64,000 nucleotides of DNA. Origin: an archaeon SCG-AAA382B04 (GTDB lineage Archaea; Halobacteriota; Methanonatronarchaeia; Methanonatronarchaeales; Methanonatronarchaeaceae). The position numbers and the translations under genes are program-made. How positions within the stretch are numbered: the first letter of the stretch is position 1; the number at the start of each line of letters is the position of its first letter. The stretch is taken from contig PZKD01000125.1 of the NCBI GenBank assembly GCA_003034855.1, forward strand, positions 19,521 through 83,520. Direction: 5' to 3'. The notes under the pieces are model-generated. The model saw only the letters and a program-made list of their open reading frames with translations. It did not search any database and was not told the origin of the DNA. Of this stretch, positions 1,738 to 3,230 are shown piece by piece.

Positions 1738-1777
1738 TTGCTTACTTAAAATATTTTGTTCCTATTTGATTTAAGTT

Positions 1778-1827
1778 GTGAACTACCCCTACCTAACTCA
1801 CTTCGCTTGTGAGGAAGGGGCTTCCTG
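1778..1827 (-). repeat. IS end module (tnpB 3' side, RE-like) forming an imperfect hairpin
   Basis: Sequence gtgaactacccctacctaactcacttcgcttgtgaggaaggggcttcctg. ctcac(1797-1801) pairs with gtgag(1809-1813), and cccct(1786-1790) pairs with agggg(1816-1820). It overlaps the tnpB stop codon. Confidence 0.6.
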
Positions 1828-3010
1828 TTTCTATGACGAAGCTTGCAGACACATCTCTAAAGTTGGTGTCCGTAGAGGCTTCAGTCTCCACAGGCGTGAC
1901 TTTGGCTCGTCCCTCGCCTAAACTTTTTTCTAAAATATTCTGTGCAGCATTATAGTCTCTATCCGTTTTATATCCACAACTTGGACAGCTATGTTCTCGT
2001 TGCCATAGGGGCTTATTGGTTTTAACACCACATTGGGAGCATTTTTTGCTAGTATCTTTTGGGTCAACCAGAACTACTTCTATACCAGCACTCTCAGCCT
2101 TGTACAGAAGCAACTGGATGAACTTCCTCCAACCAGAATCAAGCGTGTTCTTGCTATTCATCTTGCCCTGAACCATGCTAGAGATGTTCAAATCTTCCAA
2201 CACTATTCTATCGTATTTATTGACATAAGCATTAGACAACTTATGGAGAAAATCCATACGCCTATTTTTCACCTGTTCATGAAGTTTGGCCACCCGCTTT
2301 CGCTGTTTCTTGTGGTTGTTACTCCCCTTCTCTTTCCGGCTTAAATTTCTCTGGGCTTTCTTTAATTGTTCTTCGGCTTTCTCCACATTCTTTGGATGTT
2401 CAACTCTGTTACTATCACTATCAACAATAAAATTCTGGATACCAAGGTCAATACCTACAGCTTCAACGTCATCAGAGTTAACTGAGTTCTGTTTTTCTGT
2501 TTCTTGTTCGGTTTGGAAGATTGCGTACCATTCACCAGTGTTGTTTCTTTTGATAATTACGCCTTTGGCTTCTTCTTCGAGTTCTCGATGCAACTGAATC
2601 GGTATCTTCCCTATCTTCGACAACCTAAGTTTATCCAATCGGTTCTCTGTCCTTTTTAGCTTGAATCCTGACTGATTGTACTCAATAGTCTTAAACCATT
2701 CCTCCCCCTTACACCGTAGTTTCCCAACTTTATATCCATTCCTTTTCTGCTCAGATAGAGATTTGAGGTTGTCGTATAGTTGTTTTAGCACCATTTGTAG
2801 GACTTTGCTGTGAACCTGTTTTAATTCAGTCCACTTTTTCTTGAGTTTTGGAAGTTGTTTCTGAAGTTCGTAGCGAGAAGGTGTTTCGTCTTTCTTGTTT
2901 AGTTTTTCAAGGAAGTGGTTGTAGACTTGTCGACATAGGTCAAGATTTTTCTCTAGCACCTTCTTATCTTTTTCTGAAGGATAGAGACGATACTTATAAC
3001 TCAAATTCAT
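1793..3010 (-). CDS. tnpB: TnpB (IS200/IS605-family OrfB, RNA-guided DNA endonuclease class)
   Basis: 405 aa. N-terminus YKYRLYPS. RuvC-I GIDLGI, RuvC-II VLEDLN, zinc finger CSQCG...CPSCG, RuvC-III DRDYNAAQNI. All catalytic residues appear intact. Confidence 0.9.
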   Translation of the reverse strand: MNLSYKYRLYPSEKDKKVLEKNLDLCRQVYNHFLEKLNKKDETPSRYELQKQLPKLKKKWTELKQVHSKVLQMVLKQLYDNLKSLSEQKRNGYKVGKLRCKGEEWFKTIEYNQSGFKLKRTENRLDKLRLSKIGKIPIQLHRELEEEAKGVIIKRNNTGEWYAIFQTEQETEKQNSVNSDDVEAVGIDLGIQNFIVDSDSNRVEHPKNVEKAEEQLKKAQRNLSRKEKGSNNHKKQRKRVAKLHEQVKNRRMDFLHKLSNAYVNKYDRIVLEDLNISSMVQGKMNSKNTLDSGWRKFIQLLLYKAESAGIEVVLVDPKDTSKKCSQCGVKTNKPLWQREHSCPSCGYKTDRDYNAAQNILEKSLGEGRAKVTPVETEASTDTNFRDVSASFVIETGSPFLTSEVS

Positions 3011-3120
3011 TTTTCCATTTCTTCTTCTATTTTATTCCTAACAAATTTGGAGAGATTTATTGCGTTTTTTTCAAGCCACTCCTCGTGCTTCTCTTTTATA
3101 GTTATAGATTTCGTCTTCAT
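3007..3120 (-). CDS. 37-aa ribbon-helix-helix-like micro-ORF, translationally coupled to tnpB
   Basis: My own translation: MKTKSITIKEKHEEWLEKNAINLSKFVRNKIEEEMEK. The pattern is a beta-strand (SITI) followed by two helices, as in CopG/RHH proteins. Its TGA stop overlaps the tnpB ATG (ATGA at 3007-3010). Confidence 0.5.
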   Translation of the reverse strand: MKTKSITIKEKHEEWLEKNAINLSKFVRNKIEEEMEK

Positions 3121-3163
3121 CTTTACAATATAATTATTATTTTTATTGTTTATAAAGTTTGTA

Positions 3164-3211
3164 GTGATTCACCCCCACCTAAAATCAAAGATTTGAGGAA
3201 GGGAAGTTCTC
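3164..3211 (-). repeat. IS end module (tnpB 5' side, LE-like) forming an imperfect hairpin
   Basis: Sequence gtgattcacccccacctaaaatcaaagatttgaggaagggaagttctc. It shares the arms GTGAnnnACCCCyACCTAA ... GAGGAAGGG with 1778-1827. aaatc(3182-3186) pairs with gattt(3190-3194). Confidence 0.6.
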
Positions 3212-3230
3212 ACCAAACAAGTTAAAAAAA

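Follow-up and report, generated by a model that had tools for sequence, protein, structure and literature searches.

A probable non-autonomous IS200/IS605-family TnpB element, with a small gene in the tnpA position, between rps2 and the MEMO gene of an archaeon

The 64,000-nt stretch of archaeal DNA analyzed here (contig PZKD01000125.1 of archaeon SCG-AAA382B04, positions 19,521 to 83,520; hereafter the window, on which all coordinates are based) carries an element of 1,444 bp (approximately 1778-3221) between rps2, the gene for ribosomal protein S2, and a gene of the MEMO family. The element, rps2, and the MEMO gene are all read on the minus strand, to which the features described below also belong unless stated otherwise. 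We consider it probable that the element is a structurally intact, non-autonomous insertion sequence (IS) of the IS200/IS605 family, lying 3' of a TTTAA target in a 51-nt rps2-MEMO spacer. Its anatomy, homology, insertion boundaries, conservation, and covariation are established directly by the comparisons set out below. The element is ordinary, and a preliminary description of the same DNA read it correctly, apart from one overlooked component, a small gene directly upstream of tnpB, and too much emphasis on transcriptional consequences.

On the minus strand the window runs enolase (3864-5099), rps2 (3231..3854; Pfam Ribosomal_S2), an interval of 1.49 kb, the MEMO gene (946..1737; Pfam Memo 2e-76, with synteny), and mevalonate kinase (mvk). 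The order rpoK-eno-rps2-MEMO-mvk is found in three related genomes (L017, L018, and L019; L0xx and P0xxx denote loci and proteins of relatives), with rps2 at the same position. The rps2-MEMO spacer measures 51 nt in two of these, 219 nt in the third (L018), and 1,493 nt in the window, which bears out the earlier proposal of an insertion into the rps2-MEMO-mvk operon. The nearest homologs of the window's MEMO protein are 67%, 60%, and 51% identical to it, and because the 51%-identical one comes from Methanonatronarchaeum, the host can be placed by sequence near the Methanonatronarchaeia. The empty spacer of L017 reads TGA-TTTTTTTTAA|AACTTAAATCAAATAGAAAC..., i.e. TGA-T8-AA|AACTTAAATCAAATAG (TTTTAA|AACTTAAATC around the insertion point). 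In the window the left junction is TAA-TTTTTTTAA, the element runs from CTTGTTTGGTGAGAA... to ...GGGGTAGTTCAC, and the native sequence resumes as AACTTAAATCAAATAGGAAC..., i.e. TAA-T7-AA(element)AACTTAAATCAAATAGG. Deleting 1778-3221 in silico gives back a spacer of ordinary length and sequence, and no target-site duplication is required relative to the L017 empty site, a distant comparator, provided that the boundary is TTTAA|CTT.

The sequence TTTAA (3222..3226), directly 5' of the left end (LE), is the putative transposon-associated motif (TAM) and insertion target, as suggested by the L017 empty site and by the LE flanks of eight copies, which read TTTAA in 5/8 and ATTAA, TTTAG, and GTTAG in 1/8 each. 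The pentamer AACTT (minus-strand reading) is present at both junctions, at 3219-3223 and 1773-1777; with the boundary after TTTAA, this doubling is a coincidence of TAM end, LE start, and native flank. Alternative left boundaries, with TTTT(T) or AACTT as the TAM, were rejected, because TTTAA agreed better with the empty site of L017 and with the flanks of the eight LEs. The right boundary is fixed independently of the empty-site comparison, since the terminus GTAGTTCAC is followed by complete divergence in 13 further distinct loci that carry related TnpBs (63-79% protein identity where measured).

Both ends of the element had been said to carry the same module in the same orientation. The pattern ACCCCYACCTAA-N(8-24)-GAGGAAGGG has just two matches in the window, 1785-1819 and 3171-3203, each on the plus strand, with 0 matches expected from 100 shuffles. 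The two modules fold as hairpins and point the same way; terminal inverted repeats are absent. Each has a stem base (G)AAG(T)CCCCTTCC / GGT.G.GG and a tip that varies in length and sequence between copies, and the module of the left end closes with ...ATGAATCACC, that of the right end (RE) with ...GTAGTTCAC. The LE and RE of relatives are built alike, and from these sequences the repeated module is the general design of the element's family. Subterminal imperfect palindromes are the established sites recognized by Y1 transposases in IS200/IS605 elements (summarized in PMC4615843).

The LE (3127..3221) starts CTTGTTT and includes the module previously placed at 3164-3211. Its outer stem GGTGA/TCAC (3214-3210 with 3167-3164) encloses an imperfect hairpin, CCCTTCCTCAAATC-TTT-GATTTTAGGTGGGGG, and covaries (GGTGA/TCACC versus GGCGA/TCGCC in L004). 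An nhmmer profile built from the LEs of relatives matches 3226-3132 (E 2.7e-19), and the architecture CTY...GGTGAGAAGTCCCCTTCC-hairpin-GGGGATGAATCACC is common to eight copies. The RE hairpin and terminus (1778..1827) read CCCCTTCC-TCAC-AAGCGAA-GTGA-GTTAGGTAGGGG, then GTAGTTCAC; the tnpB stop codon (1793-1795) lies inside this module, the omega-RNA arrangement that the preliminary description had pointed out. The stem base and terminus of the RE are kept in all relatives, while the tip differs in length and sequence; L030, the sister copy of the window element, has the same tip type. In L024, one of the 13 further loci, the terminus takes the form GCAGTTCAC; unrelated sequence follows in all 13.

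Two other arrangements were seen among the relatives. At L024:2262-3734, tnpB stands alone between pheS and a SpoIIM-like gene, with a divergent right end (...GGCAGTTCAC) and, upstream, a 240-nt AT-rich spacer without a recognizable LE hairpin or small open reading frame (ORF). In L025:1-3200 and L026:1-3760, the TnpB P0019 (74% identical) has an intact RE and closes a series of at least eight short, overlapping, co-directional ORFs without Pfam matches, a virus- or plasmid-like layout; an LE hairpin was not found upstream at this locus.

The tnpB gene (1793..3010) encodes 405 aa with an N-terminal helix-turn-helix, a RuvC-like domain, and a zinc ribbon, and matches the Pfam families HTH_OrfB_IS605, OrfB_IS605, and Cas12f1-like_TNB (PF12323, PF01385, and PF07282) and the NCBIfam model guided_TnpB ('RNA-guided endonuclease TnpB'; 1.6e-92). 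Residues 2-364 align with ISDra2 TnpB structures (E 1e-41). The earlier statement that all RuvC residues and the zinc finger are retained was confirmed: the motifs GIDLG, LEDL, and DRDYNAAQN contain the canonical D188/E272/D352, and CSQCG...CPSCG forms the CxxC...CxxC finger. DNA cleavage is a prediction from these three catalytic residues. At positions that do not vary among 22 relatives, the protein carries only two private substitutions, and its sequence gives no sign of decay. The exact window protein had no entry in the assembly index. Its nearest relatives share approximately 78% protein identity and halobacterial TnpBs approximately 50%, and it sits on a long branch in a rough neighbor-joining tree.

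In most close relatives, a Y1 tnpA gene lies between the LE and tnpB. The window element had been described as an IS200/IS605-type element without Y1 tnpA, and tblastn detected neither Y1 tnpA nor a second tnpB anywhere in the 64 kb. Because tnpA is absent from the element and from the rest of the 64 kb, while close relatives carry it, we classify the element as a non-autonomous, IS1341-like derivative. With regard to copies at different sites, the 64 kb hold one, and the sister copy L030, with the same gene set and ends, occupies an unrelated locus of another metagenome; a scan of genome contigs returned one truncated relative. The closest relatives of the element come from soda-lake and hypersaline metagenomes, and its GC content (39%) can be compared with approximately 34% in the flanking genes and 35.6% in the window overall.

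Comparison between copies also supports an omega-RNA scaffold formed from the 3' end of tnpB together with the RE (predicted at 1778..1960, with an approximate 5' limit). An nhmmer RE profile matches 1957-1778 (E 1.3e-43), and in the alignment A2, nucleotide conservation over the last approximately 180 nt before the RE terminus is well above what the protein needs. The consensus fold (RNAalifold) contains an 11-pair helix between a 5' strand TGGAGACTGAAGC (1878..1890; A2 columns 155-167) and a 3' strand GCTTCGTCATAG (1831..1842; A2 columns 224-235), in which three pairs are compensatory (GC8/CG3, CG7/AU4, and AU10/GC1). The AU-to-GC double change is private to the window, which argues that the helix has been kept paired in the window's own lineage. 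Across the whole consensus structure, 95% of cells are paired, and the covariation exceeds that in 500/500 column shuffles and in every slid control, although these controls remove phylogenetic effects incompletely. A match to known RNA covariance families, which had been put forward as a further check, was not obtained: no Rfam family reached its gathering threshold in the window, and at E<=10 the interval 1650-3300 gave only chance-level matches.

Because the RE ends ...GTAGTTCAC| in 13 further distinct loci whose sequences diverge thereafter, the guide would be the native flank starting at 1777 (AACTTAAATCAAATAGG...), in line with the earlier suggestion that it is read from the flank. The predicted guide AACTTAAATCAAATAGGAAC (1758..1777) follows directly on the ...GTTCAC after which relatives diverge, and the sole perfect match in the window to AACTTAAATCAAATAGG(AAC), read from 1777 downward, is the flank itself. 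This assignment also draws on TnpB7 of Sulfolobus islandicus, whose guide begins directly after a conserved UUCAC of the RNA scaffold and for which TTTAA is the TAM, NTTAA is equally good, and TTCAC used as a TAM is left uncut (PMC11043419). The TTTAA at the LE flank and the TTCAC at the RE terminus of the window element agree with the TAM and RNA terminus determined experimentally for TnpB7 (PMC11043419). In Halobacterium, every IS1341-type tnpB gene was found to have a sense-overlapping 3' RNA (PMC4615843), and such RNAs are today classed as omega-RNAs (PMC12558985).

The component missed when the element was called 'TnpB-only' is a conserved 37-codon gene (3007..3120; MKTKSITIKEKHEEWLEKNAINLSKFVRNKIEEEMEK) whose TGA stop overlaps the tnpB start codon (ATGA). 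It lies inside the IS boundaries, between the LE and tnpB, in the slot held by tnpA in relatives. Sequence comparison shows this ORF to be a genuine gene: among 1.8 billion representatives searched, 80 cluster representatives matched at E<=1e-3, and a profile search retrieved 348 proteins, with the family consensus K.ITI...H..WI..N.INLSKFVR.KI.EE. L030 has the same gene (P0321) in the same ATGA overlap ahead of its TnpB (P0002), together with the same LE after TTTAA, the same RE hairpin type, and unrelated flanks; the TATA block CTTTATAAACAATAAAAATAATAATTA is identical between the two elements. The window and L030 proteins are identical at 31/37 positions, and among the 16 codons that differ, 10 changes are synonymous and six conservative (K/E or E/D), a pattern of purifying selection at the sequence level. 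AlphaFold2 run with an alignment models residues 1-9 as extended, 10-18 as a helix, and 23-36 as a second helix (predicted local distance difference test score 85), and this suggests, though not firmly, a ribbon-helix-helix (RHH) monomer topology. Family members give weak matches to the CcdA, RelB, MazE, and DUF6290 models; the window protein itself matched no Pfam or NCBIfam family, and a PDB profile search returned only chance matches.

Other arrangements of this family were also noted. Members head unrelated operons, as is often the case for small repressors; in L032-L037, a 57-aa member (gene at approximately 3001-3174) heads a sugar-nucleotide/polysaccharide operon on nine contigs, with genes for an epimerase, a UDP-glucose dehydrogenase, and a nucleotidyltransferase. 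L033 and L037 also carry, at the contig edge and approximately 3 kb from the 57-aa gene, a TnpB-type gene of 466 aa. P0281 fuses the family domain to a nucleotidyltransferase (MNT-like) domain, and P0268, P0282, and P0288 are tandem duplications of the small domain; fusions and tandem copies of this sort commonly mark antitoxin or repressor modules.

The slot directly upstream of tnpB seems to gather small accessory genes. The tnpA-bearing relatives have a different ORF of 37-77 aa, Cys-rich and zinc-ribbon-like, between tnpA and tnpB and often overlapping both (L002:2771-3004, L005:2862-2975, L006:2160-2276, and L020:2356-2526); these gave no significant Pfam matches. L004 also lacks tnpA and has, behind a normal LE, a 53-aa ORF in ATGA overlap with tnpB (L004:2843-3004). 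We considered the L004 ORF as a homolog of the window ORF, but BLASTP produced no alignment and it is a positional analog only. Descent of the window ORF from the 3' end of a tnpA gene was likewise rejected: LSKFVRNKIEEE resembles LKEYVENQGEE by eye, but no BLASTP alignment was obtained even at E<=100.

From this anatomy we infer RNA production, cleavage, repression, and effects on host transcription as follows. An internal TATA-type promoter would drive a single transcript that spans both the small gene and tnpB, the 3' approximately 180 nt of which would fold into an omega-RNA scaffold ending ...GUAGUUCAC, and the next approximately 16-20 nt of flank (AACUUAAAUCAAAUAGG) would act as the guide. 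Because the flank in the occupied locus is preceded by TTCAC, not TTTAA, the TnpB-omega-RNA complex is expected to spare that locus and to restrict its cutting to the unoccupied allele (TTTAA + AACTTAAATC...), which would favor retention or homing of the element, a logic established for IS605 TnpB (PMC10055086). For transposition, full-length relatives that share these ends would have to provide Y1 TnpA in trans. In bacterial IS605 elements, Arc proteins, which are of the RHH type, bind the native promoters and repress them (bioRxiv 10.64898/2026.09.24.754181), and by analogy the most likely role of the small protein is repression of the promoter of its own element; what the sequence itself offers for this is the TATA block CTTTATAAACAATAAAAATAATAATTA shared by the window and L030.

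More tentatively, the window element and L030 could belong to an undescribed archaeal branch of the IS605 family in which a small RHH-type repressor replaces the Y1 transposase, its translation being coupled to that of a fully active TnpB. Such an element would be a self-regulated parasite, a guide-RNA nuclease with its repressor, that relies on the TnpA of its relatives, and it might also stand between the mobile TnpB elements and those immobile RHH-TnpB modules for which a toxin-antitoxin role has been proposed. We give this possibility limited credence. Because the TnpBs of the window and L030 are not sisters in the rough neighbor-joining tree, the small-gene module may have spread among elements by recombination rather than marking one lineage.

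Archaeal promoter and terminator signals differ from those of bacteria, and TATA-like boxes and T-runs were therefore sought by pattern and not with a bacterial promoter/terminator scanner. Oligo-T tracts are archaeal termination signals, and a T7 run resembling such a terminator (3224..3230) directly follows the rps2 stop codon. The run is T8 in L017 and missing from L019, and the last T's of the window run belong to the TAM. If this run acts as a terminator, as its sequence would allow, rps2 transcripts may end before the element; the earlier assertion that rps2 transcription must traverse the IS is thus not established. At the other junction, the motif CTTAAATCAAATA (1763..1775), TATA-like by pattern, directly follows the RE, approximately 38 nt before the MEMO ATG, and is carried without any insertion by the L017 and L019 spacers. 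It is probably the TATA element of MEMO's own promoter. The flank had been described as the 5' leader of MEMO; it does lie ahead of MEMO, but it is more than a leader since it holds this conserved promoter-like motif. Because the insertion sits between the T7 run and the conserved motif, expression of rps2 and MEMO-mvk is probably largely intact, and the insertion point appears to be among the few in the spacer that do no harm.

The element has a candidate promoter of its own, a TATA-box-like TTTATAAA (3149..3156) that precedes the ATG of the small gene by 28 nt; TATA-like boxes occupy the equivalent place in relatives, ahead of tnpA. Because the sense strand contains no T5+ run in the element or beyond it, between 3223 and 1211, read-through from this promoter into MEMO-mvk is possible, as the preliminary description had claimed, but that description gave the effect too much weight. 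Taken further, the same observations would make the element mainly a mobile promoter whose outward transcription now drives MEMO-mvk as co-opted host regulation. The element is indeed oriented as the operon is, with an internal promoter-like box and no T5+ run downstream of it, and the upstream T7 run may end rps2 transcripts. We nevertheless regard this explanation as unlikely. The simplest reading of CTTAAATCAAATA, which the 40-nt flank retains and which is conserved in insertion-free genomes, is that it is the native promoter of MEMO; the gene could then do without read-through, which is a generic side effect of any sense-oriented IS.

The same spacer was examined in L018, where the 219 nt of Methanonatronarchaeum sp. 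AMET-Sl (L018:3282-3500) hold a GC-rich hairpin (CCACGGGCC...GGCCCGTGG-like) and the word GGTGAGAACT, which also occurs in the window LE; this similarity is not significant. The L018 spacer was rejected as an LE remnant, because its matches extend over only 8-11 nt and are not significant.

The small gene raises the question of whether the pair is instead an immobilized, exapted RHH-TnpB two-gene module of toxin-antitoxin type, in which the small protein would control TnpB, itself a nuclease or toxin of the cell. The association of archaeal RHH/MazE genes with TnpB has been described (PMC10691335), and here a gene of predicted RHH topology lies directly upstream of tnpB and overlaps it, its family matches CcdA, RelB, and MazE antitoxin models weakly, and the window has a single copy and no tnpA. 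However, the described clade is non-mobile and has the RuvC-III Asp changed to His, whereas the window protein has the canonical DRDYNAAQN; the element retains two intact transposon ends, which agree with those of tnpA-bearing relatives; a sister copy occupies an unrelated locus after the same TTTAA; and related genomes lack the insertion. We therefore hold exaptation of this kind to be very unlikely. Also very unlikely is a decaying relic, no longer able to move or act and conserved through recent arrival alone: the lack of tnpA in the window, the single copy, the long TnpB branch, and a GC content above that of the flanks, which suggests outside acquisition, could be read in this way, but both ORFs are intact with just the two private changes at invariant TnpB positions, a private double compensatory change keeps the RNA helix paired, both ends are complete, and an identity of approximately 78% to the nearest relatives implies ample time for a decay that is not seen.

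Several points weigh against our interpretation of a structurally intact, mobile-type TnpB element with an omega-RNA and a repressor-like partner. Because AACTT is present at both junctions, the left boundary is ambiguous by up to 5 nt; the nearest empty-site comparator has a MEMO protein that is only 67% identical, and the placement of the TAM at TTTAA relies on parsimony and analogy. The absence of tnpA, and of further copies of the element in the window by pattern search or by nhmmer with the LE and RE profiles, likewise counts against it. The window scaffold on its own folds no more stably than shuffled sequence (z = -0.69), and because of this, the case for an omega-RNA is made by comparison between sequences; the expression, ends, and guide length of the RNA are predictions. 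The RHH assignment of the small protein is weak: no family match lies above a curated cut-off, AlphaFold2 run on the single sequence gives one long, uninformative helix, Foldseek with the 37-aa model found no match in the PDB, and homology to Arc is not established by sequence. The separate positions of the window and L030 TnpBs in the rough tree belong here as well.

Elsewhere in the window, a 219-aa Lys/Glu-rich ORF (5409-6068) lies between rpoK and rps10, where the local GC content falls to 17-27%.

The analysis adds a well-delimited archaeal TnpB element, with a putative TAM (TTTAA), RE terminus (TTCAC), guide, and empty site, from a poorly sampled, halophilic, methanogen-related lineage. 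Its ends, TAM, and covarying scaffold helix offer a ready design for examining the soda-lake TnpB clade as compact RNA-guided nucleases. The less ordinary point is the small gene of predicted RHH topology in the tnpA position: if its product represses the element promoter as Arc does, regulation of this kind would reach archaea as well as elements that lack tnpA. With a likely terminator on one side and a likely promoter on the other, the insertion is an example of how a transposon whose TAM is AT-rich can come to lie within an essential gene cluster and do no obvious harm.

Among characterized systems, the IS605-type TnpB7 of S. islandicus (SisTnpB; PMC11043419) is likewise an archaeal TnpB with TTTAA at the left flank and a scaffold ending UUCAC before the guide. 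Its native target, preceded by TTCAC, is not cleaved, and the occupied target in the window is also preceded by TTCAC. The window protein differs in coming from a halophile/soda-lake lineage, in being known from sequence alone, and in its setting, which lacks tnpA and has the additional small gene. The haloarchaeal IS1341-group tnpB genes and their sense-overlapping transcripts (sotRNAs; PMC4615843 and PMC12558985) share the absence of tnpA and an RNA that extends over the 3' end of tnpB and takes in the RE hairpin; the loop of that hairpin is 7 nt in the window, in contrast to a UUCA tetraloop in the haloarchaeal group, and the window host is a low-GC relative of the Methanonatronarchaeia whose element has the small gene in addition. 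The TnpB-omega-RNA complex of ISDra2 (8bf8, 8exa, and 8h1j) has the same catalytic residues and an omega-RNA from the tnpB 3' end plus RE, but ISDra2 is bacterial, uses a TTGAT TAM, and carries tnpA.

For the small gene, the closest parallels are of two kinds. Arc of bacterial IS605 elements (bioRxiv 10.64898/2026.09.24.754181) is an RHH protein; like it, the small protein of the window, with its predicted RHH topology, is encoded inside the IS, beside the internal promoter and tnpB. The window gene, in contrast, runs in the same direction as tnpB, overlaps the tnpB start, and replaces tnpA instead of accompanying it; its host is archaeal, its product gives only weak CcdA, RelB, and DUF6290 matches, and DNA binding is predicted. 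The RHH/MazE-TnpB clade (Altae-Tran et al. 2023; PMC10691335) similarly has a small RHH-type gene directly upstream of an archaeal tnpB, but that clade is immobile with the RuvC-III Asp-to-His change, whereas the window element has a canonical active site and both ends. Each main feature of the element thus has a published precedent, namely the tnpA-less TnpB element, the LE and RE hairpins, the 3'-overlapping omega-RNA, the TTTAA TAM with a TTCAC terminus, and the small RHH partner gene.

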